Source: a virus
Virus record (IMG/VR): IMGVR_UViG_3300010885_010784
Location: 6,081 to 70,080 of that record
Direction: 5' to 3' (one strand)
DNA: 64,000 bases
This document shows positions 2,296-59,632 of the stretch, piece by piece. Both the position numbers and the translations under genes were made by a program. The notes under the pieces were generated by a model, which did not search any database, was not told the origin of the DNA, and was given only the letters and a program-made list of their open reading frames with translations. Every line of letters begins with the position of its first letter. Position 1 is the stretch's first letter.

Positions 2296-3315
2296 ATGGC
2301 TCACGAACTAGAAATAAATAACGAAACAGGCGAAGCGTCTTTTGCTTCTCTACGCCAACCTGCTTGGCACAAACTCGGCACTGTGTTTGAAGAAGAAGTA
2401 AATACCGCAGAAATGCTAAAACTGGCAAAACTAGACGGCTGGAATGTTCGTCTTGAAGATGTCGCAATCCCTACTGGTTTTGAGAGCGACAAGTCTTACT
2501 CGTTCGTATCTCGCACCAATCCATTCAACGCAGACCAGACAGACATTCTTGGTGTCGTTGGTGAGCGTTATGTTCCATTACAGAATGAAGACTTGTTCTC
2601 GTTTGGTGATAACCTGCTAGACGGCGGTGGTCGCTGGGAGACTGCTGGCTCTATCAAGGGTGGTCGTCAAGTGTTCGGCTCTATCGCATTGCGAGACGGC
2701 ATTACACTAGACCCTAATGGTCGTGCCGATAAGATTGATAACTATCTTCTAATCAACACTTCTCACGACGGCTCTATCGCTATTCAGGCAAGTATCACGC
2801 CTGTTCGTGTTGTGTGTGCTAACACTCTCAACCTTGCTCTATCTTCATTCAAGGGTAAGTCTGCTTCTAAGCAGTCATTCAAAATCCGCCACACTTCAAC
2901 TGCCGAAGGTAAAATCGCAGTTGCTCGTGAAGCGTTAGGTTTGGCTTCTAAGTATCTTGATGAGTTTTCTGTTATGGCTAACGCTATGATTGAAAAGGAA
3001 ATCACTAAGGCTGACTTTGATAAGATTGTCGCTCTTGCTTACCCTGCCCCTGAAAAAGACAGCAAGGGTTCATTCAAGAAACACGACAGCAAAGTTGATT
3101 TGCTAAACGCCATTTATGTCGGTCAATACAACGACACCATTTCGGGAACTGCTTGGGGAGCATACAACGCTCTAACCGAACGCCTAGACTGGTATCGCTC
3201 GGCTCGTGGTGGTTCAAACGAGAGCATTTACGCAAGTGCTTCTGGCTTTGACCCTGTGATGAACGCAGAGAAGAACCGCCTAATGAAGATTGTTCAATCA
3301 GTCGTAATGGCTTAG
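2296..3315 (+). CDS. DUF932 / phage-plasmid-like protein (TIGR03299 type)
   Basis: MAHEL..PAWHKLG, WETAGSIKGGRQVF, NTSHDGS, PVRVVCANTL and GTAWGAYNALTE motifs; RBS GAAAGG favours ATG 2296. Confidence 0.9.
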   Translation: MAHELEINNETGEASFASLRQPAWHKLGTVFEEEVNTAEMLKLAKLDGWNVRLEDVAIPTGFESDKSYSFVSRTNPFNADQTDILGVVGERYVPLQNEDLFSFGDNLLDGGGRWETAGSIKGGRQVFGSIALRDGITLDPNGRADKIDNYLLINTSHDGSIAIQASITPVRVVCANTLNLALSSFKGKSASKQSFKIRHTSTAEGKIAVAREALGLASKYLDEFSVMANAMIEKEITKADFDKIVALAYPAPEKDSKGSFKKHDSKVDLLNAIYVGQYNDTISGTAWGAYNALTERLDWYRSARGGSNESIYASASGFDPVMNAEKNRLMKIVQSVVMA

Positions 3316-3358: not shown

Positions 3359-3433
3359 GCTCCCATAGTTTAGTGGTTAGAACGCCAGGTTTTCATCCTG
3401 GTGGCGAGAGTTCGATTCTCTCTGGGAGTGCCA
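3359..3433 (+). tRNA. tRNA-Glu(UUC)
   Basis: Acceptor GCTCCCA/TGGGAGT, anticodon arm CCAGG-TTTTCAT-CCTGG, TTCGA T-loop, encoded CCA. Confidence 0.93.
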
Positions 3434-5865: not shown

Positions 5866-6097
5866 TTTCGTTACTGAAAAAGAATTCGATGATGCCATAG
5901 ACCTTCTATATTCATTCGTTGATAAGTTTGTTAATGATGATTCAGAAGACTTCTCTATGCAACTAACAGAACTAACTAATCTAGCATACATGCAGGGATG
6001 GCATAAAGCCATTGACATGGTATTAGATGTCAGTGGTAACATGTATAATGGATTCGATAGCCCAACCCTACAAGAACTGGAGCAACGCATTGTCTAG
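5858..6097 (+). CDS. hypothetical protein
   Basis: MSDFVTEKEF...; RBS GGAG. Confidence 0.7.
   Translation: MSDFVTEKEFDDAIDLLYSFVDKFVNDDSEDFSMQLTELTNLAYMQGWHKAIDMVLDVSGNMYNGFDSPTLQELEQRIV
6026..6051 (+). promoter_or_regulatory. ATGTC-box promoter inside CDS
   Basis: GATGTCAGTGGTAACATGTATAATGG. Confidence 0.7.
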
Positions 6098-21967: not shown

Positions 21968-22008
21968 ATAGCATCATCTCCTTCTATATTTGATTATATC
22001 ATAATCAG

Positions 22009-22080
22009 AGCCACCTAACGGATTCGAACCGTTGACCTCCATATTACAAGTATGGCACTCTACCGCTGAGTTAAGGTGGC
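22009..22080 (-). tRNA. tRNA-Thr(UGU)
   Basis: GCCACCT/AGGTGGC acceptor; CCATA-CTTGTAA-TATGG anticodon arm. Confidence 0.93.
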
Positions 22081-22084
22081 GAAG

Positions 22085-22158
22085 CGATTCCGATGGGACT
22101 TGAACCCACGACCTCTACCGTGACAGGGTAGCGTTCTAACCAACTGAACTACGAAATC
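22085..22158 (-). tRNA. tRNA-Asp(GUC)
   Basis: GATTTCG/CGGAATC acceptor; CTACC-CTGTCAC-GGTAG anticodon arm. Confidence 0.93.
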
Positions 22159-22259
22159 AAATGTTCCTTAAACAACCCAGATAGGAACAACATCTGTAAC
22201 AGTCTTTACTAGTATACCGTTAAAGCCATCTATGCTTTCACATACCGCTTGGTCTTGTG

Positions 22260-22331
22260 CTGGTCACCCAGGACTCGAACCTGGAACATTTCGGTTAACA
22301 GCCGAACACTCTGCCATTGAGTTAGTGACCA
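22260..22331 (-). tRNA. tRNA-Asn(GUU)
   Basis: TGGTCAC/GTGACCA acceptor; TTCGG-CTGTTAA-CCGAA anticodon arm. Confidence 0.93.
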
Positions 22332-48227: not shown

Positions 48228-48835
48228 TATACCTCTTCCAGCGTAACAGAAATATTCCACAAATCGTGGTTAGCCCCACCACGCTTTACTACTGTGTAAT
48301 CAAAACTAGAAATAAACATTTCAATTACCTCGTTGTATTCAGCAAGGTGTGCATATTGACCAGACTCAGCAAAGTTACCCTTTTTATCATACGCTAAAAA
48401 GACATAAAACGAGCCTGTGTGGTTTTGATACCAGTCAAGTAGTTCATTGCCACCAGCACCCCCATCAACTGTATACCTAGTTCCTACTCCTGTTACTGCA
48501 CCTGTAGTTGTGTTAAACTGTGGGTCTAGACTAAACGCTCTAGATGGAAGCATGTCCCAAGAAGTACTGATAGTCATTTTATCAGCAACGTGGTATGAAC
48601 GCATACGACCATTAATCATACGCTCTCGTTTTTCAATACGTTCTGGTTTGAATGAAATATCTTTTCTGTTGTGGTCAGATAGAACTATAAAGTCGTCTCC
48701 TGCAGTAACAGCATTAACCTCGTAGCCATCTGGGACTAGAAATCCACCAGAAGTAATTGGAGGTAGGTCTGACCACATCATTGCCTGTGGTCTTCTATAT
48801 GTCTTCCTACCAGCGAGGTATGTACTTGTAGCCAT
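48227..48835 (-). CDS. distal tail (Dit-like) protein
   Basis: Directly follows TMP; RMINGRMRSY..ADK, WNISVTLEEV. Confidence 0.7.
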   Translation of the reverse strand: MATSTYLAGRKTYRRPQAMMWSDLPPITSGGFLVPDGYEVNAVTAGDDFIVLSDHNRKDISFKPERIEKRERMINGRMRSYHVADKMTISTSWDMLPSRAFSLDPQFNTTTGAVTGVGTRYTVDGGAGGNELLDWYQNHTGSFYVFLAYDKKGNFAESGQYAHLAEYNEVIEMFISSFDYTVVKRGGANHDLWNISVTLEEV

Positions 48836-51800
48836 TAAATAGCACTGCTCCTAATTCGTCTTGAGTCAATACGCTTAATCTCTCTTAGCACTGAATCTGC
48901 AATATCGCTGGCATCTGAAGAGTTAGCATTGACTGTAATACTATAATTATACACTGATTCTCCACCTCGTGCTCCATTATTCATGGACTGTAGTTTGCCA
49001 GCACCAATTGAATCTACTGCTGACTTTCTCATAACAAATTCTCCTGGGGTAAGCATAGCAGGAATAGTGTCTGTTCCAAGTGCATACTTGCTCTTTGCAA
49101 TGTGCATACCATTTTGAGCATAAACCATACCACCTTGAGCAAAACGTTTTCCAACGTAAAACTCTGTCATTTCTTGGGTGTAGCCTTTTTGAGCCAAAGC
49201 CTGGTCAACCGCAGAGATGTTTCTTGCAATTCCCTGAACGTTTGCTATAGCAGCAGCAACAGGTGCGTACAACGCATTATAAATTTTAATTGAACCCTTA
49301 TCGTCAGTTGCCTTACTTCCTATCCATCTGTCTCCGTCTTTTGACAATTGAGATTTTGCCGAAGACTCAAAAGTTGTTTTTGCAGTTGCTAGTTCTGCGT
49401 TTGCTGTTTTCTTTTGTTCATTAAAAGTTTTAAGTAGTTCTAGTGCTTGTTGAACTTCCACTGGCTGTTTATTAAAGGCTGTTGTCTTTTTTTCTTCAGC
49501 AAGTGCGTCAAAATTTGTAACAAGTGCTTCTGCAGCCTTGTACTCTTCTACATATGCATCGTATGCAGCCAAGTCCTTTGGTGCTATTGAACTTCTTTGT
49601 TTAAGGGTGTATCCTGTGCCACCTCTACCTGCATACGCTTGAGTAAATTTTCCAGAAGAACCTGCCTTAAGTGTGCTAAAAGCATTTTTTGCAGCAATTT
49701 TATCTTTTGCTATATTTCCAGCAGTTAGGCTGGTCAAACTTTTTATTGCTACACCTAATGTTTTTCCTGTTCCTCCGCCGCCGAACTTTCCAATTTTTGC
49801 CAATCCAGCAACGGCTTGTCCAGCCGTGACAGGTGCACCAGTGTCTTTAGTGTCTTTAGTATCCTTGGTGTCCTTAGTATCCTTTACTCCAGTGCCAGAA
49901 ACACTTGGATTATAAGGCTTTACAAGAGCAAGAGCCTTGCCATCTTTAAGGATACTAGCCATGTGCTTTGCAGACTTAAGTGCATTTTGCTGAATATTTG
50001 CTTGATATTGTTCTTCTTTTAGTTTGTACCCTGCAATCTTTTCAGCGTTGCTTTCAAGAATTGCTTCTAGTTTTGTACGGTCAGTAAGAACACCGTTAAT
50101 TCTAACCTCAACACCCTCAAGTTCAATCTTTCTAGCATTTTCAATACTTGTCTTAGCATCATCTAGTGCTTGCTTCTGGTCGTTTTGTTTAGCCTGAAGT
50201 GCAGCCTTAGCAGCAGCAGCGATGTCACCCTTTGACAAAGCATCTGCAAGTGTCATTGTGTCTTGTTGCTGTTGGTTATTCTTTTCTCGAATCTTTCCAA
50301 TTTCATCAAGTGCTTTTGCACGAGCATTATACTTATCGTTAATCTTTTTTTCTTTAGTAGCAATAACATCAAGACCAGCCTGATACAATTCGTTATCTTT
50401 TGCTAGTCTTTCTGCAGGAGTTGCAAGAACATAGGTAAGACCAATTTCGCTGGCATCCTTAATTTCTTTCAACTTCTTTAGAAGTGCTCCAGCATTAGCC
50501 CTTAACTTACCAGTTTTCTTGTCAATAATTCTATTCTGCTCTTCTTCAGTGCCGTTCATAAAGTCTCTAATGATTTCTGCATCTGCACCCTGGGCTTTCA
50601 TCAATACTGCGATACCGCCCATTTGCTTGACCGCTGCACTTCCATATTTCATAATTGCCTTGTATGATGCATCCCAACCAACGGTAAGTTTTTGCTGCCA
50701 GTTGTTTGCTTCACGAAGCATTTTTACATATGGGTCAAGGATTGATGGGTCTGGACCTTGCTTTGTTGATGTATCCTGTGCAGAACCTGGACCAGTAGTG
50801 TTGTCAACGCCAAACGAGGTGACAGTTCTATCTGCTTGGTATGCCGCATAATCAGCAAATGTAAGAGTCTTATTGCCCTGCTCGCTTTGCCAGACTTTAA
50901 ATGCAGCCATCATATCCTTGTCGCCCTTCATGGCAAGAATTTGTTGAAGTTCCGTCATAAACACTACTTTGTTTGCTTTATTGTATTTATTAAAGGTTGC
51001 AAATTTAGACTTTAGTGCTGCAATACCGTCTTTACTTCCTTCTAAGAATTTGCTGGCTATGCCAATGGTGATGGTTTTTTCTTTCTTAAGGTTTTCAATA
51101 TTTTCATTAAACTTAATCATCTTGTCTTCATTTTGAATTGAGAAGTTTATGATTGCTTCACTTGCCTTACCTTTGAAAACTCCTCTTGTTTTATTTGCAA
51201 GTTCTAGAGCATTGTTAGTTTGCATTAGTTTTGCAGGGTCCATTGTTGAGGCTTCAGTCAAATATTTTTCTTTAAGTTTTGTATCTGTAATATTGGATGA
51301 AAGACCTAGTGCACGGTTGGCTTCTACTGGACTATTTGTAAGTAGATTGGCAAGGTTTGCCATTCCTTCTGCAGAGCCACCAAATACCTGTGCAGCGGTG
51401 TTTGCCTGATTAATTCCAAGTTGTTTAGTTGCTATTGCAGACTTAACAAAGTTTTCTTGTCCTTGCGTTCCAGCAGAATTGTCAATTGCCTCTCTTGCTA
51501 GTTTGGCTTGAGTCTCTAATCCAGTTCCCTTATACGCTTCCTCAATAGACTTATTTAGTTCATCACTAGTTGCTACTTGAGTATTAAATAGAATTCCCCA
51601 ACCAGTGCTTTGGTCTTCAAGAGTTTTCAATAGTTCTTGATTAGTCTTTTTGTTTGACTCTAGCAGTTCACCTTGGTCAATTAGGTACTGATTCTCAAGT
51701 TTTGTAGCCTCAGCAATATCTCCAGCAGCACGAGCACTAGCAATTCTTTTCTCATAAGATAACTGCAATGAGTCAACCATCTGTTGCTCAACCTCTAGAG

Positions 51801-54800
51801 TATTTTGAATAGATTCAGAAAGTGCTGCAGCCTGTTTTGTAATTTGTTCTTGGTACATGACACCTGCAATAACCATTCCAGTAAGAGCACCAGCAATAGT
51901 TCCAATAATTGGAACTGCGGAACCTGCTGCTGCAAGACCTCCAATAATTGTTCCAGTTGATGCAATTGCAAGTCCAGCGTTGGCGGCTAAAGTTGCAAGT
52001 CCTAGAACTGCACCACCAGCGGCTAGTCCTGCACCTGCACCAGCAACGCCACCTACAACCTCACGACCAGCCTGAGTACCATTGTTTGCTTCTGCTCCAG
52101 TCTGAGCCATTGCAGCGGCATTGCCTCTAACTTGTTCCATAGAAGATTCAATAATTTTCATTCTAACTTCTAGTGGGTCCTTGGCTAGGTTTTCACCATT
52201 AGGACCCATAATGTCTGTAAGGCTTGCAGATACATTAAGACCAAAGTTCATATCTCCAAGTTCTGTACCCAAGTTTGCTGCAATGCTTCTTGCTTGAGCA
52301 GGGTTCATTACACCAGTAGCAATTGCTTCTGACAACTGGTTAGTGATTAGTTTTTGTGCGTTCTCAATTCCGCCACCCTTAGAAATTTCAGTATCAACAG
52401 ACTTAACGAGTTCTTTACCTGCGTCTGTCTTCATGTAAGACTCACCGAATGTTGTTTTACCCTGAACAATATTAAAGAACTGACCACCGCTTGTTTCACG
52501 GCGTTTGTCCATAGCCTCAGTACCAGTTACCTTCTTAGAGAACTCTGCAAACTTTGCCATTGCTTCATTGCTAGTGCCCATCTTCTTTTCTAGGTCAGAT
52601 GATTCCTTGGCTAGTTTATTAAGGTGTTCATTGATTTGGAATGCTGCAACACCAATAGCAGCAAATCCTGCTACCACCAATCCAGCAGGACCAGGAATAA
52701 GAGACATTGCCGTAGTGGCTGCACCGATTGGACCCATTGCTGCTTGAGCAGCCTCGCCAACCTTTCCTGGAATAGTTGACGCTAGACCAGCGACAGTTGT
52801 AAGGGCATACATTGCAGACTGTACTTTACCAGTTACTTCATTTCTAGTAAACGCACTAGAAACTTTTCCAGCAAACCCCTTGCCCTCAAGTCGTTTGTCA
52901 AACTTAGCCTTTTCTTCCTTTGACATTTGGTCGTAACCAGCATTAACTCTCTTTTGGTTGTCTGCAAGTCTCTTGTTTTCTATTTCTTCTTGTTTTGCTC
53001 TTTCTTGTTCTTGTTTAATCTGTTTGCGAATTTCTTTATCAGTTAACTTAGTTTCTTTAGTAACCTCAACAACACCATCTGCTGCTTTACTAACTTTTTC
53101 TGCTGCTGTAGTTTGCAACTGTGATAGTCTTTGTGCTTCTGCATCTTTCTTTTTACTTAAATCATCCATTACCTTGACTGGAAGTGGGCGACCTTCGTTG
53201 TAGGAATCTCCAATATAGCCACCACCATCGTAACCAATAATTCCACCATTAGCGTATCCTGGCAAATTACCAGAAATCATTCCTTGGATTAGTCCACGGT
53301 GTTTACCTGCTTGTTTAGCAGGAATTACAGCCTCACCTGGAGAAAGCATAGCAGGAACTACATCGCCAGCACCCTTTGGTCCTGGAACTGAGAATACTCC
53401 ACCAGCATATCCAGGAATGAATCCACCCTTAGCAAGTTTCATCATTAGAACTTCAATAATTTTTGGTATACCGCCAGAAATGCTAGTAATCTTACCCTTT
53501 AGTCCTGGAGGAAGTACACCCTCTGACTGGAATGGATATTCTGCACCAGCCTTTTCTCCAAATGCTTGTTTTTTGTAATCTGGATTGTATGTATTGTGAT
53601 TCATAATTCCTGGCATATCGTAGCCAGCAACAAGTTTTAGAATAGTATTAACAGCACGTTCTCTATTTCCAGTGTTAAGTTTTCCTGCTGCTGTCATTCC
53701 AATTGCTTGCAGTTCAGACTGTGATGCAATGGAAGAGAATCTGTTACCAAGTTCAATGATATCGCCAACCTTCTTTGTGGCTAGTTCTTCATTTTGTCTA
53801 ATGGTAGGTACACGGAACATTTGGTTGCCTTTACCAATTGTAGATTTTGCAACCAAACTTGCCAGAGCATCTCCATGCTGAATTTGAGCAAGAGGTGAAT
53901 TTTGAATAAATGCAACTTGTGCATCCTTTTCTGCCTGAGTTGGCATAGCAGAGAATCCTTGTGGAAGAACTCCTGCTGTTCCATCGGCAAGTTTGAGTGG
54001 ATTGTAAGCAGGAATACCAAGAAGACTAATAGCACCACGAGTAGCATCCATATCATCATAGAACTCTTCGATGTCGTAATACTTCATAAACTTAGAAGTC
54101 TTGTCATACTTCATTTGTTCTGGTTTGCGGTAATCCTTATCTCTTCTTGAAATAAGTTTTACACCGTTCATGTCAATGCCAAGTTTTTTCAAAGTTTCTA
54201 GAGTGTGTGGGTCATATGATTCTGGACGAGCGGTCATAAGAAGAATCTTGTTGCCACGAGCCTGAGCAGCCTTTAGTCTTTCAATCGCTGCTGGGATGCC
54301 CTTCGGGTCTTTAGCAGCCTCTTTGTACCACTTCTTCTTTTGTCCTTCTGGAAGTTTGTCATTCTCTGCTTTATGCTTTTCCATGAATGATGATAGGTCA
54401 AGAAGTGTGTCGTCGATATCAAATACAGATGCTTTTGGCTTTACCCCTGTTTTGACAAATCCTCCGTCTGCCATTTTTTTAATCATTCCATATTTAATTA
54501 ATGACTGCATATCTGTAATAGAAACGTCTGGACCAAATCCAGTCTTTGGACTATCGTATGAAAGGAATTTACTTTGGCTGTCGCTCATAAATCCTGCTTC
54601 AAGACTATTTCCACGAAGTTTTAGTCCTGCTGGTATTGGTGGCATTGCGCCAGAAGCAATCCAAGAATCACGGAGAGCAATCTGTTGTTTACGCAAAGCG
54701 TCGCCACCATTCTTAGAACTTCCTTCAAGATTAAATCTTGCACTTCTTAATTTTGCATTTGCTCCTGTTGGAGAAAATAGCATTCCATCTTTATGGAACT

Positions 54801-57800
54801 GAAGTTGTCCATTATTAAATTGATTTCTAAGAACATCATTATCTTTAAGTGCTTTTCCTGATGCATCAAACTCTTCTGGAACAACCTGTCTTAGAGTTCC
54901 TACAAGTCCTGCCCTTTCTAGATATTTATTTGCAAGTTCCCCAATTGGACCTTGTGTTTTTGCATATTCTTGAAGTGCTTGGGTTGCACCCTTGGCAAGC
55001 GCAGGGTCATTGACACGACCCATCTGTGCGTTAGCAATGGCACTTAGTCCAATCTTGTCTTCAATAGTTTGTGACGCACCAAGGTATGAGGACGCTGGCG
55101 ACTTAAGACCTAAAGTCTTTTTCAGAGTTGCGTTCATCTTACCCTTTAGGGCATTGTAAACAGCCTTAAAGGGACCAACTTCCATACCTGCAGGACCAGT
55201 TTTTCCACCAACACGAAGTTGCTGATTTAATTTATCTGGCAAACTCATTGTTAGATTGCCAAGAATTTTAAAGTTCTTGAAAGCATCTGCACCAGCACCA
55301 AATACTCCAAGTTGTGTTTCTACATCTTTGTAGTTAAGTTCATTCTGTGCATGGCTTTCTTGAAGGACCATCTCCCACTTAGAGCCATCATAGTCGTATA
55401 TTGCTTTACTGCCCTTTACGACACCCACAATTGGGTCATGCTCTGCACCCTTAACTTCATCTTCGCCTTGGTTAAATTTCTTTACCGTTGGAACAACTGC
55501 TGAGTGCATTGCTTGGTACTTTGACCAATCAACATTGCCACCTTTTTGAAGTCTTTCAATCATTTGCTGATATGATGCTGCTTCTTCAGCAGACATTGGA
55601 CCAAAGTTTGCAACAGTTTCTTTTAGTCTTGGTAGAACACTAGAAATTTCAGCCTTCATTGCTGCATCATATTCAGCAGGTGTAAGGCTTGCTGCTATGT
55701 CCTTTGTTGCTTCTGCAAAGAATCTCTTAGCACCCCCCTTTACACCAAGTAGGTTAATAATGGCTTGTTCTTCCATAGAGTTAATGGCACTACCAAGAGC
55801 ACGTTTACCAGATGCCCTGCCAAATACACCAGCAGTTCCAACATCAGCAAGGATGTCTCCACCGAGATTTCCAACCCCAAGGTCTTTGTCGCCACGAAGA
55901 AGTGATGCAACTAACTGCTTGAAGTATTGTTCTTTTGTAAATGTTTCTGGAATATTTGCAATTCTGTCGTCAAGTGCTGATTCAAGAACAATGAACTTGC
56001 GTTGATTTTCTGGGTCTGTTGGGTCCATCATTACACGGATTTCTTGCTTAGGTGCCACAAGACCGTGTGCGTCACGAGCAATTGTTGTTCCACGGACTTC
56101 TGCTAGTGCAGATGTAAGGTCAATCTGTGGCTTAACAAATACTCTTGTACCATCTGGCTTTTCGTAAATACCACCAACATTAAATGCAGGGAATGAGTGA
56201 CCAGTAGTTGGAGAAATTTGTGTACCAAAATCTGTAGGCGGCACATTTCCATAAGGACCAGCCTTAACTTCATCGCTAATATCTTTAAGTTGTAATCCAG
56301 TTCTCAAAAGACCATCTGTTTGCTTTTGTGTAAGTGGTCCATAAACGCTTTGACGCATACCTGCACCAGTAGTACCATTTTCAAATCCAGGAAGGTTTCC
56401 AGCAACCATACCAGCAATTACAGGTGCATATTTTCTTGCATGTTTTGCAGGAATAACCGCTTCTCCTGGAGATAGAAGAGCAGGAACAATGTCTCCTGCA
56501 CCAGCAGGACCAGGAACCATTGACACACCATTAGCATACTTCTTTGGCGTTATGTTGGGATTGCCTACAGGGACTCCAGGAACACCAGAGAATGCTTGCT
56601 GTGCTTGAATAGCATTTCTATATGCATTTGTCAGGTCATTCAGTGCACCTGCTTCAGATGTAAATGTTTGACGAAGTTTGGCGTGAGCCTGGTCAAGTGA
56701 TGCTGCGATTGCTGCACCCTTTAGTTGCTCGCTTGTCATGTATCCTGTTTGCTCACCAAGGATATCTGATGGTCTTGTGGTCTTGTTTATAAAGCCCTTC
56801 ATGTTTGTAAAGAGTTTCATAATGTTTGCTACACCGTTGGCAATAAGACCAAAGGTCATTAGAAGTAGTGGACCAATACCAGCAACAGCGGTTACAAGAA
56901 TAGTAATAAAGGATTTTGTGCCTTCACTTAGGTTATTAAAACCATCAAGGATTTTACTGACGAATTCAATGATTGGGGTTACAGCCTTCAGGAATGCTTC
57001 ACCAACTGGTGCGAGTTTAGCCTGAATGTCTTGAATAGATTTTTGGAACTTGTACATTGGAGAGTCTGAAATCTTTTTCATTTCTCGTTCGGATAGTACA
57101 GATAGTTCTTCTGCAGTTTGTGTTGCAAGTCCTGCCACCTGCTGTGCTTGGCTACCCTCTTTAATTACGTTTTGAAACAATGTAGAAATACGAGAAAATT
57201 GAAACTTACCAAATAGTTGTTCGATAGCACGAGCACGGTTTAGTGGGTCAAGAGTGTCAAAAGCCTTTGCCATGTCAATAACAGTTTGCTTTACATTACC
57301 CTTGTTTCCTTCTACAATTCCCTTAACATTAATATTAAAACCAGCAAGGAACTCAGATGCTTTCTTGCTTGGGTTAATCATAGACGCTAGACCAGACTTA
57401 AGTGCGTTAGCACCTTCGGATGCGTTAATTCCACCTTCCTTCATTGCTGTTAGGAAGAATGTTAGGTCTTCTACGTTACCACCAAGTTGCTTGACAACAG
57501 GTGCTGCCTTTGGAATAGCAATGGTAAGGTCTTCAATAGATGTTACAGTTTGGTTTTCTACTGCGTTTAGAAAGTCAATCTTTCCAGATAGTTGGTCAGC
57601 AGATGTTCCAAATGCATTGGTTAATGAGATGGTTGTCTCTAGTGCTTGATTCTGGTCTACCTGACCTAGTACTGCCAACTTGTTTGCCTGAGCAATTTGA
57701 GAAAGTAAGTCTGCTCCAGTCTTACCCATAGCAGCAGCCTTGGCAGCCATATCCATAGTATCTGACACAGCAACGCCATATTTAGTAAATTCGTTTGCAA

Positions 57801-58536
57801 GTTGACGAACAGAGCCAACCATTTTTTCTGTTTCGTCTGCTGTTGTGTTTATGTCTCCATAAACACGCCTGAAGGAAATCGAAGCCTTTTCAATTTCCAT
57901 ATATGCTTTAGCAGCAGCAGACCCCATAAGAGTAAGTGGAACGGTAAAACCAACCATCAACTGGCGACCAGCCCACTGAGTATTCTTACCAAAGTTTAGA
58001 AGATTAGTAGAACCCTGCTTCATCAACTGATTAAATAGTTGCTGTCGTTGAGCAGCAATTTGAGTTTTTGTACCCAAATTATCCATATCAAGAGCAAGCG
58101 GTCTAACGGCAATGGCTTTCATTGCACCATTGGCATCACGACCTAATTTGATGTATTGAGTTTGTAGGTCTTTTACTCGTTCACGAGCAACCTGGTTAAT
58201 TGTTTCAAATTCGGACTTAAACAGTTTACCAAAAGATTTTGAGGCTCCACCTGCATAGCGGAAGTACTCACCCATTGTGAGTTTGTTCTTTTCAAGTGCT
58301 GAAGTAAATCTCTCAGAACTTGTTTGAATTGTTTGAATGTTTGCTTGAAACTTACCAGTTGCATTAATAGAGTTTGCAAGATTTTGCTGCATCTGTCTTG
58401 CAGCCAGTGCATTGTCTGCACCTGCTTTTTGCATGGCTTGCTGAAAGGCTGATATTTGCTGTTGCAAAAGTTTTAGTTGCGCCAGAGCATCTGACGTATC
58501 TATATTTACTTTTACATTGGATTCAATATCAGCCAT
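48835..58536 (-). CDS. tape measure protein (TP901-type core) with embedded kinase-like, HAD and ADP-ribosyltransferase domains
   Basis: 3233 aa after tail chaperones; N-terminal TMP core, hydrophobic Gly/Ala segments, three D.VPA.L(S/T)PGE.V motifs. Confidence 0.92.
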   Translation of the reverse strand: MADIESNVKVNIDTSDALAQLKLLQQQISAFQQAMQKAGADNALAARQMQQNLANSINATGKFQANIQTIQTSSERFTSALEKNKLTMGEYFRYAGGASKSFGKLFKSEFETINQVARERVKDLQTQYIKLGRDANGAMKAIAVRPLALDMDNLGTKTQIAAQRQQLFNQLMKQGSTNLLNFGKNTQWAGRQLMVGFTVPLTLMGSAAAKAYMEIEKASISFRRVYGDINTTADETEKMVGSVRQLANEFTKYGVAVSDTMDMAAKAAAMGKTGADLLSQIAQANKLAVLGQVDQNQALETTISLTNAFGTSADQLSGKIDFLNAVENQTVTSIEDLTIAIPKAAPVVKQLGGNVEDLTFFLTAMKEGGINASEGANALKSGLASMINPSKKASEFLAGFNINVKGIVEGNKGNVKQTVIDMAKAFDTLDPLNRARAIEQLFGKFQFSRISTLFQNVIKEGSQAQQVAGLATQTAEELSVLSEREMKKISDSPMYKFQKSIQDIQAKLAPVGEAFLKAVTPIIEFVSKILDGFNNLSEGTKSFITILVTAVAGIGPLLLMTFGLIANGVANIMKLFTNMKGFINKTTRPSDILGEQTGYMTSEQLKGAAIAASLDQAHAKLRQTFTSEAGALNDLTNAYRNAIQAQQAFSGVPGVPVGNPNITPKKYANGVSMVPGPAGAGDIVPALLSPGEAVIPAKHARKYAPVIAGMVAGNLPGFENGTTGAGMRQSVYGPLTQKQTDGLLRTGLQLKDISDEVKAGPYGNVPPTDFGTQISPTTGHSFPAFNVGGIYEKPDGTRVFVKPQIDLTSALAEVRGTTIARDAHGLVAPKQEIRVMMDPTDPENQRKFIVLESALDDRIANIPETFTKEQYFKQLVASLLRGDKDLGVGNLGGDILADVGTAGVFGRASGKRALGSAINSMEEQAIINLLGVKGGAKRFFAEATKDIAASLTPAEYDAAMKAEISSVLPRLKETVANFGPMSAEEAASYQQMIERLQKGGNVDWSKYQAMHSAVVPTVKKFNQGEDEVKGAEHDPIVGVVKGSKAIYDYDGSKWEMVLQESHAQNELNYKDVETQLGVFGAGADAFKNFKILGNLTMSLPDKLNQQLRVGGKTGPAGMEVGPFKAVYNALKGKMNATLKKTLGLKSPASSYLGASQTIEDKIGLSAIANAQMGRVNDPALAKGATQALQEYAKTQGPIGELANKYLERAGLVGTLRQVVPEEFDASGKALKDNDVLRNQFNNGQLQFHKDGMLFSPTGANAKLRSARFNLEGSSKNGGDALRKQQIALRDSWIASGAMPPIPAGLKLRGNSLEAGFMSDSQSKFLSYDSPKTGFGPDVSITDMQSLIKYGMIKKMADGGFVKTGVKPKASVFDIDDTLLDLSSFMEKHKAENDKLPEGQKKKWYKEAAKDPKGIPAAIERLKAAQARGNKILLMTARPESYDPHTLETLKKLGIDMNGVKLISRRDKDYRKPEQMKYDKTSKFMKYYDIEEFYDDMDATRGAISLLGIPAYNPLKLADGTAGVLPQGFSAMPTQAEKDAQVAFIQNSPLAQIQHGDALASLVAKSTIGKGNQMFRVPTIRQNEELATKKVGDIIELGNRFSSIASQSELQAIGMTAAGKLNTGNRERAVNTILKLVAGYDMPGIMNHNTYNPDYKKQAFGEKAGAEYPFQSEGVLPPGLKGKITSISGGIPKIIEVLMMKLAKGGFIPGYAGGVFSVPGPKGAGDVVPAMLSPGEAVIPAKQAGKHRGLIQGMISGNLPGYANGGIIGYDGGGYIGDSYNEGRPLPVKVMDDLSKKKDAEAQRLSQLQTTAAEKVSKAADGVVEVTKETKLTDKEIRKQIKQEQERAKQEEIENKRLADNQKRVNAGYDQMSKEEKAKFDKRLEGKGFAGKVSSAFTRNEVTGKVQSAMYALTTVAGLASTIPGKVGEAAQAAMGPIGAATTAMSLIPGPAGLVVAGFAAIGVAAFQINEHLNKLAKESSDLEKKMGTSNEAMAKFAEFSKKVTGTEAMDKRRETSGGQFFNIVQGKTTFGESYMKTDAGKELVKSVDTEISKGGGIENAQKLITNQLSEAIATGVMNPAQARSIAANLGTELGDMNFGLNVSASLTDIMGPNGENLAKDPLEVRMKIIESSMEQVRGNAAAMAQTGAEANNGTQAGREVVGGVAGAGAGLAAGGAVLGLATLAANAGLAIASTGTIIGGLAAAGSAVPIIGTIAGALTGMVIAGVMYQEQITKQAAALSESIQNTLEVEQQMVDSLQLSYEKRIASARAAGDIAEATKLENQYLIDQGELLESNKKTNQELLKTLEDQSTGWGILFNTQVATSDELNKSIEEAYKGTGLETQAKLAREAIDNSAGTQGQENFVKSAIATKQLGINQANTAAQVFGGSAEGMANLANLLTNSPVEANRALGLSSNITDTKLKEKYLTEASTMDPAKLMQTNNALELANKTRGVFKGKASEAIINFSIQNEDKMIKFNENIENLKKEKTITIGIASKFLEGSKDGIAALKSKFATFNKYNKANKVVFMTELQQILAMKGDKDMMAAFKVWQSEQGNKTLTFADYAAYQADRTVTSFGVDNTTGPGSAQDTSTKQGPDPSILDPYVKMLREANNWQQKLTVGWDASYKAIMKYGSAAVKQMGGIAVLMKAQGADAEIIRDFMNGTEEEQNRIIDKKTGKLRANAGALLKKLKEIKDASEIGLTYVLATPAERLAKDNELYQAGLDVIATKEKKINDKYNARAKALDEIGKIREKNNQQQQDTMTLADALSKGDIAAAAKAALQAKQNDQKQALDDAKTSIENARKIELEGVEVRINGVLTDRTKLEAILESNAEKIAGYKLKEEQYQANIQQNALKSAKHMASILKDGKALALVKPYNPSVSGTGVKDTKDTKDTKDTKDTGAPVTAGQAVAGLAKIGKFGGGGTGKTLGVAIKSLTSLTAGNIAKDKIAAKNAFSTLKAGSSGKFTQAYAGRGGTGYTLKQRSSIAPKDLAAYDAYVEEYKAAEALVTNFDALAEEKKTTAFNKQPVEVQQALELLKTFNEQKKTANAELATAKTTFESSAKSQLSKDGDRWIGSKATDDKGSIKIYNALYAPVAAAIANVQGIARNISAVDQALAQKGYTQEMTEFYVGKRFAQGGMVYAQNGMHIAKSKYALGTDTIPAMLTPGEFVMRKSAVDSIGAGKLQSMNNGARGGESVYNYSITVNANSSDASDIADSVLREIKRIDSRRIRSSAI
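49840..49884 (-). repeat. 5 x 9-nt coding tandem repeat (KDT)5 within TMP
   Basis: agtgtcttt x2, agtatcctt, ggtgtcctt, agtatcctt. Confidence 0.85.
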
Positions 58537-58554
58537 TCAACCACACCGACTTTG

Positions 58555-58881
58555 TTAGCCGTTAATTAGACCACCCATTAGCGAGGCTTCGCTAAGTTTG
58601 ATACCAGATGCCTCTTCGACAATCTTGTATACGGTTGGAAGGTCTAGAAGTTCTTCTAGTGCCTTCAGGTCTGCAGCCTGGTCTGGGGCATACTGCTTAA
58701 AAGCAATCTGCACACATTCCATGAGAAGAGTCATTGACTTCTCATTGTTGTCTGCTACTTCTGCGATACCCTCAAACTTTGTCATAAAAGGGCGAAGAAG
58801 TGAGATTTTTAGTGGACGGACAGAAATCTTTGTGCCGTCTAGTAGTTCTACAGTTTTTGTCTCGTTGATAGTTGTAGACAT
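58555..58881 (-). CDS. tail assembly chaperone (short form)
   Basis: Immediately upstream of TMP; paralog of N-terminus of 58925..59632. Confidence 0.75.
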   Translation of the reverse strand: MSTTINETKTVELLDGTKISVRPLKISLLRPFMTKFEGIAEVADNNEKSMTLLMECVQIAFKQYAPDQAADLKALEELLDLPTVYKIVEEASGIKLSEASLMGGLING

Positions 58882-58924: not shown

Positions 58925-59632
58925 TTATTTTGAAACAACTTCATATTCAAGACCCATGCCAATACCAAAGCCATATTGCTGTGCTTTTTGTCCCTGTAGG
59001 GATGTAATGTCGTTAGGGTCTCCATTACCAATACCAGATGCCTTTGCTGCTACCCTGGCTTTCATGGCTTCCCAAGGGTCTTCGTCCTTAGTTCCATTTG
59101 CTTCATCCAAATCTACGCCTTGCATAGCAGCAAGAAACTTCTTTTCATTATAGTCTAATTCTCTTCTTGATTCAAGAATAGCCATCATTTCTGGCATAGA
59201 GATATTACTTTCTAGTTCGTCATAGTTCTTCCAGATTCCTAACAGGAATAACTCTGATTCAAGTTTAACTAAATCTAGTTTTTCCCAACTATTTTCGCTT
59301 TTAGATTGTGCTGTTTGTGGCAAAGGTTCATTAGTTTCTTCGCTTTTCTTAATTTTTACACCAGCACATACATCAATAATCTTGTATATTGTTGGCAAGT
59401 CTACAGAGTCTTCTAAATCCTCAATTGTTTTAATTACTGGATAATACTGTTTCATTGCAATTCTTACGCATTCAGACAGGATGGCAATGGACTCTTCGTC
59501 TGTCTTTGCTTCTTTGATAGTGTCAAATACCTCCATGAACTGTCTCATGTATTTAATTTTTAGTGGTGAAACTTCTATAACTGTTCCGTCAACTAGTTCG
59601 ACTTCATCAATACTGTATATTTTTGTAGGCAT
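58925..59632 (-). CDS. tail assembly chaperone (long form)
   Basis: Between major tail protein and TMP; VELVDGT..VSPLKI...DLPTIYKII. Confidence 0.75.
   Translation of the reverse strand: MPTKIYSIDEVELVDGTVIEVSPLKIKYMRQFMEVFDTIKEAKTDEESIAILSECVRIAMKQYYPVIKTIEDLEDSVDLPTIYKIIDVCAGVKIKKSEETNEPLPQTAQSKSENSWEKLDLVKLESELFLLGIWKNYDELESNISMPEMMAILESRRELDYNEKKFLAAMQGVDLDEANGTKDEDPWEAMKARVAAKASGIGNGDPNDITSLQGQKAQQYGFGIGMGLEYEVVSK

Follow-up and report, generated by a model that had tools for sequence, protein, structure and literature searches.

An uncultured long-tailed phage with a passenger cassette of exchangeable modules, including putative enzymes, in its tape measure protein

The window analyzed in this study, a 64,000-nucleotide stretch of viral DNA (IMG/VR record IMGVR_UViG_3300010885_010784, positions 6,081 to 70,080), contains an open reading frame (ORF) at 48835-58536 that encodes the tape measure protein (TMP) of an uncultured long-tailed phage. 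The middle third of this protein, residues 665-1765, is a passenger cassette. It combines a fixed core, in which domain A is placed between two units of 55 amino acids (aa), u1 and u2, with exchangeable modules that are inserted at short repeated linkers; in the phage under study the accessory modules between A and the distal unit are B, C (a predicted HAD phosphatase) and D (ADP-ribosyltransferase-like, according to a low-confidence model). The TMP matches the Pfam domain PhageMin_Tail at residues 245-443 (94 bits against a cut-off of 33.2) and 13 PHROG families, 10 of which are TMP families (best match 1e-98) that cover residues 1-650 only.

Composition of the cassette and exchange of its modules

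The region search retrieved 674 proteins at E <= 1e-3 among 7998 scored candidates, and the best 120 of them were taken as the homologue set; this set is the top of a similarity-ranked list, and thus module frequencies in it are not population estimates. The listed homologues are 2313-4035 aa long, and nearly all have the TMP Pfam domain. The N-terminal core, u1, A and u2 are present in all 120 and the C-terminal end in 109, and C was found in 31, B in 22 and D in 4. A second set of 143 TMPs comprised the listed homologues and 29 TMP ORFs from viral loci, each with at least two internal units. Greedy homology peeling of this set found A in 143/143 proteins and gave 40 homology groups, some of which are fragments of one module, with further segments left over. 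Among the 132 unique cassettes, 59 are minimal (unit-A-unit) and 73 have extra material, in six cases more than 1000 aa of it; one cassette of 2113 aa (L020) holds approximately eleven homology blocks. In the 118 apparently complete TMPs, the cassette length varies from 401 to 2113 aa (coefficient of variation 0.49), the distance from the start to the first unit has a median of 666 aa and a standard deviation of 11, and the total length has a coefficient of variation of 0.11, below the expectation for independent parts, the correlation between cassette and distal length being -0.54. Hundreds of metagenomic proteins show this cassette architecture, and so do 28 viral loci, none of which is interrupted by an internal stop.

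An initial annotation of this DNA had described the protein as a polymorphic effector-delivery polyprotein. Polymorphism holds for B, C and D, which come and go, but not for A, which is invariant in the family; the polymorphic part is therefore the segment between A and the distal unit. Similarly, the two units that were proposed to bracket the cassette are both found in 120/120 homologues, but they primarily bracket A, since a unit stands directly before A in 142 of the 143 proteins and directly after it in 82.

The ends of homology blocks cluster at residues 1014-1030 and 1519-1527 of the TMP, and their starts cluster at residues 1343-1354, 1507-1508 and 1707-1713. Identity to the relative L003 is 85-100% through A, 10-45% across B (approximately residues 1020-1360), and again 80-100% from residue 1360; in the comparison with L002 and L017, D is missing (residues 1520-1700), with 70-100% identity on both flanks. 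The identity to L003 and L002 collapses at the linker KKFNQG. The linkers KKFNQG and KKMADGG delimit the replacement of B, and the presence or absence of D is delimited exactly by NPL-KLADG and KLAKGG. At the residue level, the sequence without D reads ...NPL-KLAKGG-IPGYANG..., and that with D reads ...NPL-KLADG-[D]-KLAKGG-FIPGYAGG..., hence the inserted piece is the linker plus the module. The order of modules varies as well: D precedes C in L020 and P0005 and follows a unit in L014. Overall, 71 of the 190 module junctions in the family are located no more than 10 residues from a strict motif, as compared to 6% of random cassette positions, and this statistic is conservative, because the peeling divides some modules too finely and variants such as KLADG escape the strict pattern.

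Alignment of homologues had been set beforehand as a test of the proposal that the motifs are recombination joints, and both the alignments and the identity profiles place domain gains, losses and replacement exactly at the motifs. The role of the linkers as recombination joints is thus supported by the comparison of related sequences. The K-L-A codon strings flanking D have only 8 bases in common; with DNA repeats this short, any recombination at the joints would need microhomology, or selection after illegitimate exchange. Recombination via long DNA repeats was rejected on the basis of this 8-base match and of the short identical runs of u1 and u2.

Every motif reported in the initial annotation was recovered at its place by script: KKYANG (residue 665, position 56544), PGFENG (716, 56391), KKFNQG (1019, 55482), KKMADGG (1353, 54480), KLADG (1515, 53994) and KLAKGG (1700, 53439). 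Further motifs are PGYAGG at residue 1708, PGYANGG at 1759, KRFAQGG at 3130 and KYALG at 3150. Three units with the pattern PAxL[ST]PGE are located at residues 685, 1728 and 3159, and the last of them, scoring 13.2 bits with the hidden Markov model (HMM) of the unit, agrees with the third unit noted there at the C-terminal end. Motif counts in 121 family TMPs were compared with the composition-shuffled expectation, and most of them exceed it by far. The pattern [FYLMW][AEV]xGG was observed 122 times in the cassettes (33.7 expected), 125 times in the last 120 residues (4.9 expected) and 12 times in the N-terminal part (20.4 expected), and PG[FY]xxG was observed 320 times in the cassettes (3.7 expected). 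The consensus of the site is K-[LFMY]-A-x-G-G-(I/M/V)-(V/I)-P-G-Y-A-x-G, and the third position of the motif is variable (K 39%, E 12%, M 9%).

The HMM built from the two internal 55-aa units detects two to five units per protein in all 121 TMPs, with scores of approximately 97 bits for the internal units and 13-35 bits for the C-terminal unit of the same proteins. Weak matches of the units and the C-terminal end to several unrelated TMP PHROG families were found, for the most part close to the C-termini of these families; in particular, the C-terminal region matches positions 1878-1940 of 2006 in phrog_37649 (9.8e-9). The internal units may therefore be read as paralogues of a widespread C-terminal element of TMPs. 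In Pfam, no family matches the units at E <= 10. A possible likeness of the unit core to the LexA/signal-peptidase strand motif was dropped, as the would-be nucleophile position is Val or Thr. Identity between units is 65-71% regardless of position or phage and is no higher within a protein (0.67), and at the DNA level most synonymous sites differ between u1 and u2, with identical runs being short. This pattern indicates conservation at the protein level rather than recent duplication or gene conversion. In a 414-aa C-terminal TMP fragment (P0122), the D module is followed by five linker-like repeats in a row, without intervening domains (FANGGMV, YANGGMV, FANGGMV, FAMGGMV and FVDGGY), and right after them by the C-terminal unit; thus the linker appears to be a repeat in its own right.

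Predicted domains of the cassette

The initial annotation proposed four globular domains, resembling in order a HipA/PI3K-like kinase, a domain of no named kind, a HAD phosphatase and an ADP-ribosyltransferase (ART). A globular fold is shown for A by the model (pLDDT 85.4), is supported for C by Pfam and more weakly for D (pLDDT 61.2), but it was not shown for B. The proposed identities are in agreement with our data: A is kinase-like and has both HipA and PI3K (VPS34) among its matches, C is assigned to the HAD phosphatases, D resembles ADP-ribosyltransferases, and B is without a family.

The AF2 model of A, based on an alignment of 27 sequences, has a pLDDT of 85.4 and a pTM of 0.84. Seven residues, K81, E92, D162, K163, D164, N169 and D177, are invariant in these sequences. 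In the model, strand 77-83 contains K81 and helix 86-101 contains E92, and helix 147-160 is followed by D164...N169 and then by D177-V-G. From kinase topology, we take these residues to be the strand-3 Lys, the helix-C Glu, the D-x4-N catalytic loop and the DxG/DFG Asp, respectively. Every PDB match listed by Foldseek, all at low similarity, has a kinase fold (a LepB fragment, CotH, CtkA, VPS34, Fam20, HipA and MAP kinases). BFVD contains eight viral models that match A at E <= 1e-3. Three are large phage proteins (1200-1340 aa), of which two bear the name ADP-ribosyltransferase and one the name portal protein; a fourth match, of 614 aa, is annotated as a PI3/4-kinase catalytic domain, and the other four are unnamed or uncharacterised. 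No kinase family was found for A in Pfam (E <= 10), no PHROG at E <= 1, and nothing meaningful in the PDB profile search. The model is a confident one, its fold is predicted to be of an atypical protein-kinase-like type, and the kinase motifs are kept in 127 of the 132 unique cassettes. All 14 short matches to A are on short contigs or start inside a domain, giving no evidence for A outside giant TMPs.

B has no match in Pfam, PHROGs, the PDB profile search, Atlas or a search for proteins of near length (alignment of 10 sequences); the 22 copies among the 120 listed homologues are mostly about 30% identical to it.

C matches the Pfam family Acid_phosphat_B (66.4 bits, cut-off 27), several more HAD families below their cut-offs, class C acid phosphatases such as lipoprotein e(P4) in PDB (E = 1.1e-4), and PHROG 415 (1.4e-14). 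HAD motif I (DxDxT, with the nucleophile Asp) is intact in 39/39 family members, and on the basis of its sequence C is classified as a HAD phosphatase. A polynucleotide-kinase-phosphatase PHROG fits C about equally well, so more than one substrate class is possible.

The model of D was built from seven sequences, and Foldseek gives eight PDB matches at E <= 1e-3 with weak TM-scores (0.34-0.43). These include VIP2, XopAI, C3larvin, the ADP-ribosyltransferase toxin/immunity pair 6dre, and Vis, and nearly all of the PDB matches listed are named as ADP-ribosyltransferases. R56, S83 and E153 are invariant in 7/7 sequences, and Q151 is found in 6/7. The model places R56 (FRVP) in strand 52-56, S83 (FSSIAS) in strand 81-86, which is followed by a helix, and Q151-S-E153 at strand 152-155; by their pattern these are presumably the Arg, Ser-x-Ser and (Q/E)-x-E motifs of ADP-ribosyltransferases, which are kept in 7/7 cassettes with D. 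No family was found for D in Pfam (E <= 10), PHROGs or the PDB profile search, and in Atlas it matched unnamed viral clusters alone (0.90-0.91). We consider D to be ADP-ribosyltransferase-like, at the low confidence of its model. The domain is rare: an exhaustive search of 1.84 billion representatives gave six proteins, one of them spurious. In another phage, a free-standing gene near a transcriptional-regulator gene and outside any tail module (L035:8001-8855) encodes a 284-aa protein (P0124) that is 35% identical to D and keeps R/S/E, with A-D-E replacing Q-S-E. In addition, a 2506-aa TMP with a related N-terminal core and without A (L032:3389-10906) has D immediately before its C-terminal unit, indicating that D can ride at the very end of a different TMP.

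Pfam searches of the cassettes of six relatives gave HAD and a sub-threshold primase zinc finger only, and PDB searches of two relatives' cassettes gave HAD only. The primase zinc finger, below its Pfam cut-off, was seen in two tandem Cys-rich modules of the largest cassettes (L020:9836-16174; P0005, residues 1790-2360). The same two cassettes hold a module of approximately 370 aa with the string G-P-G-x-Y-F-A, whose resemblance to PARP-type ADP-ribosyltransferases we presume from this pattern. Among 50,697 phage records, the cassette had no match in a near-identity DNA search and one weak protein match (28% identity, E = 4e-4), in which the HAD part aligns with a hypothetical Serratia phage protein. 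A single match was obtained from 185,579 species genomes, on an 85-kb contig of a metagenome-assembled genome (L034). The bin is labelled as an uncultured Bifidobacterium, into which a phage genome may have been sorted.

Features of the gene and genome context

The features of the TMP gene are listed in Table 1. For the distal part, residues 1766-3120, no Pfam or PHROG family was matched; this part holds a perfect (DTK)x4 tandem repeat at residues 2886-2897 (49846-49881, minus strand).

Table 1. Features of the tape measure protein gene and of its passenger cassette; positions are those of the window.
Feature	Position	Strand	Basis
Whole TMP ORF	48835..58536	minus	3233 aa plus stop, one ORF
N-terminal TMP core, residues 1-640	56617..58536	minus	in 120/120 listed homologues
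Hydrophobic segment in N-terminal core, residues 540-577	56806-56919	minus	hydropathy
Unit u1, residues 665-721: KKYANG...VPGPAGAGDIVPALLSPGEAVIPAK...PGFENG	56374..56544	minus	motif script, unit HMM
Domain A, residues 722-1018, predicted atypical protein-kinase-like fold	55483..56373	minus	AF2 model, structure matches, invariant residues
Linker KKFNQG, residues 1019-1024	55465..55482	minus	homology blocks stop at residues 1014-1030
Domain B, residues 1025-1352, no recognised family	54481..55464	minus	found only in TMPs of this family
Linker KKMADGG, residues 1353-1359	54460..54480	minus	homology blocks of C begin at residues 1343-1354
Domain C, residues 1360-1514, predicted HAD phosphatase, subfamily IIIB-like, motif I DIDDT	53995..54459	minus	Pfam, PDB, PHROG
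Linker KLADG, residues 1515-1519	53980..53994	minus	exact upstream edge of the D insertion; blocks stop at residues 1519-1527
Domain D, residues 1520-1699, putative R-S-E type ADP-ribosyltransferase-like	53440..53979	minus	Foldseek, invariant R/S/E
Linker KLAKGG-FI-PGYAGG and unit u2, residues 1700-1765, PGYANGG at end	53242..53439	minus	in 120/120 homologues
Distal TMP part, residues 1766-3120	49177..53241	minus	partly conserved among homologues
Gly/Ala-rich hydrophobic segments of distal part, residues 1943-1970 and 2160-2229	52627-52710 and 51850-52059	minus	hydropathy
C-terminal region, residues 3121-3233: KRFAQGG, KYALG, third unit TDTIPAMLTPGEFV	48838..49176	minus	unit HMM 13.2 bits

On its upstream side the TMP gene is flanked by two chaperone-like ORFs that share phrog_10504 and by an Ig-bearing major-tail-like ORF, and on its downstream side by a 202-aa ORF and a 1642-aa minor tail protein; this is the tail-module position expected of tape measure genes. 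The two adjacent ORFs directly upstream (58555-58881 and 58925-59632, minus strand) have phrog_10504 at both N-termini, and the longer one additionally carries phrog_10474. They look like tail-assembly chaperones present as two paralogous genes, with no frameshift. The viral contig is approximately 70 kb long and is estimated to be 66% complete, and the GC content of the cassette is the same as in the rest of the phage. Elsewhere the record has phage genes for a DNA polymerase, a helicase, a primase and a UvsX-like recombinase. Of its four tRNA genes, those for Thr, Asp and Asn are clustered at 22008-22331 (minus strand), and that for Glu is located separately at 3359-3433 (plus strand).

Delivery of the cassette and relation to known systems

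TMPs fill the tail lumen and leave the tail ahead of the DNA. By analogy with known delivered phage proteins, we consider it an evenly balanced proposition that the cassette is carried in the tail and delivered upon infection, with the linkers serving as flexible, exchange-tolerant joints. In such a scheme, the cassette would travel in the tail as part of the TMP and would be expelled with it, and the ATP- and NAD-dependent enzymes would then act on host targets before phage gene expression, as proposed for polyvalent proteins. The requirement of kinases for ATP and of ADP-ribosyltransferases for NAD, two cytoplasmic cofactors, points to the cytoplasm as the site of action. The linkers would be in the first place flexible joints tolerant to recombination; cleavage at them is possible, but is required by no result. 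A precedent for part of this scheme is T5 pb2, which is described as being cut during tail assembly so that its enzymatic C-terminal piece stays in the tail, and this piece was proposed to be expelled at infection, possibly needing refolding (10.1101/2022.09.20.507954).

Several observations weigh against delivery of enzymes to the cytoplasm. Three copies of folded domains of 20-35 kDa should not fit the lumen of a siphophage tube, and hence the modules would have to travel unfolded. The enzymatic assignments themselves are weak in part: no PDB match of A reaches E <= 1e-3 (best 2.6e-3, TM-scores 0.2-0.42), the TM-scores of its fold matches are 0.2-0.5 overall, the model of D has a pLDDT of 61.2 from its few sequences and low TM-scores, and B and most other modules are without a recognisable family. 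The fixed presence of A across the family would also fit a role in tail assembly or DNA delivery instead of an effector role. Among solved structures, C is closest to class C acid phosphatases of the periplasm or outer membrane, and the matches of A include the secreted kinases CotH and Fam20, so that cytoplasmic action is not given. Finally, the homologues were drawn from the top of a similarity ranking, and the negative correlation between cassette and distal length could mean that total length is constrained, or could be an artefact of the cassette definition or of shared ancestry.

A rather doubtful but serious alternative is that the units and linkers are proteolytic sites. Cutting of the polyprotein at these sites, while the tail is assembled or once the protein is ejected, would yield a TMP-like N-terminal piece, a distal piece, and free enzymes that act as separate polypeptides. 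Residues 1-721 indeed have the appearance of an entire TMP closed by a canonical C-terminal-type unit; the PHROG TMP profiles end by residue 650, and this part is near-constant in length. The units and linkers are conserved at the protein level far above the need of a plain spacer, and the free-standing gene for a D-like domain suggests that the module works as an autonomous unit. Both T5 pb2 and lambda gpH are described as cut in tail morphogenesis, and the T5 cut separates off an enzymatic domain that is retained in the tail (10.1101/2022.09.20.507954). However, neither the TMP nor the cassettes of six relatives yielded a protease or autoprocessing domain, no naturally split gene was seen among the short homologues of A, and the variable third position of the motif is loose for a specific site.

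The same extracytoplasmic relatives of C (class C acid phosphatases such as e(P4)) and A (CotH, Fam20), together with the universal occurrence of A in the family, would fit enzymes that are not host-takeover effectors and act in the periplasm or envelope during penetration, or on tail and TMP components during assembly; cell-wall targets are also described for the TMP-borne enzyme of T5 pb2 and for lytic transglycosylases in the TMPs of enterococcal phages (PMC10194240). We find this improbable: no peptidoglycan-hydrolase domain was found in the TMP with Pfam, and several viral structural neighbours of A are large multi-domain proteins named ADP-ribosyltransferase or portal. The cytoplasmic location of NAD and ATP also argues against it. 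Very improbable is the explanation that the inserted segments are length filler or decayed relics with no enzymatic role, or that the ORF is an artefact of assembly or fusion. The total length varies less than the parts predict, and the correlation between cassette and distal length could mean selected length, with B and many other modules lacking a recognisable family; but catalytic motifs are kept in 127/132 (A), 39/39 (HAD) and 7/7 (D) cassettes, the same architecture is seen in hundreds of independent metagenomic proteins and in the 28 uninterrupted viral loci, and the GC content of the cassette matches the rest of the phage.

An extended form of the delivery proposal is tentative and in our opinion has less than an even chance: the TMP might be a programmable multi-effector injector, in which the units, as copies of the tip-binding end of the TMP itself, and the linkers would be docking and processing signals, and the fixed kinase and exchangeable enzymes would be threaded unfolded through the tail, released, and refolded in the cytoplasm before phage gene expression. 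MARTX toxins and head-packaged polyvalent proteins would then have a counterpart in a siphophage.

Polyvalent proteins of phages and plasmids and the processed T5 pb2 are the closest known systems, and no TMP bearing such a cassette was found in the titles and abstracts searched. The TMP has at least two unrelated effector-type domains in an architecture that varies among relatives, the property by which polyvalent proteins are recognised. In PMC5512222 (Iyer et al. 2017), polyvalent proteins are likewise described as having several unrelated catalytic domains per polypeptide in architectures that vary between relatives; ADP-ribosyltransferases and protein kinases are often carried and are among their commonest domains, and it is proposed that they accompany the DNA into the host and become active ahead of phage gene expression. 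Another point of likeness is that large phage proteins (1200-1340 aa) bearing the name ADP-ribosyltransferase or portal protein are among the best BFVD matches of A. In contrast, the carrier here is a TMP (the word 'tape' occurs 0 times in that paper), and the organising elements of the cassette are a defined linker that is repeated and a 55-aa unit that originates from the C-terminus of the TMP. Moreover, no zincin-like processing peptidase, which is frequent but not universal in polyvalent proteins, was found in the TMP or in the cassettes of six relatives.

T5 pb2 is also a TMP that bears an enzymatic domain. However, pb2 and TMPs with embedded hydrolases have one muralytic domain with periplasmic action, whereas the cassettes of this family have up to approximately eleven homology blocks (L020), of which the identifiable ones are kinase-like, HAD and ART, none being a peptidoglycan hydrolase. 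A conserved delivery scaffold with exchangeable enzymatic cargo is also found in the MuF-fused polymorphic toxins of temperate phages and in MARTX toxins, and MARTX effectors are split by short linkers. The TMP has no MuF or cysteine-protease processing domain, and its scaffold and linker differ, so the analogy is functional only. Sle1-type effectors of actinobacterial contractile injection systems are described as having a TMP-like coiled-coil scaffold and a variable, swappable domain in a tail-like particle (PMC13277306); in contrast to the TMP cassette, they belong to bacterial particles and, as described there, have a single C-terminal domain and no system of linkers and units, and the likeness is one of description. 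In titles and abstracts, with subscription journals outside the coverage, we found no phage TMP with kinase, HAD or ART modules or with such a linker grammar.

Among the layers of host takeover and counter-defence, the one understood least is that of proteins delivered together with phage DNA. Their known carriers are packaged in the head, for example T4 Alt, N4 vRNAP, and fusions of MuF or portal proteins. If it is true that the TMP carries cytoplasm-directed enzymes, this would be a second, tail-borne delivery route for long-tailed phages. The linker marks module borders and is therefore a simple sequence handle for listing dozens of candidate effector domains from metagenomes. In addition, the cassettes of 401-2113 aa in close relatives are a natural experiment on whether every TMP residue counts as a ruler. 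Finally, the grammar of units and linkers, if it proves sufficient for loading, could help to direct cargo into phage tails or tailocins.

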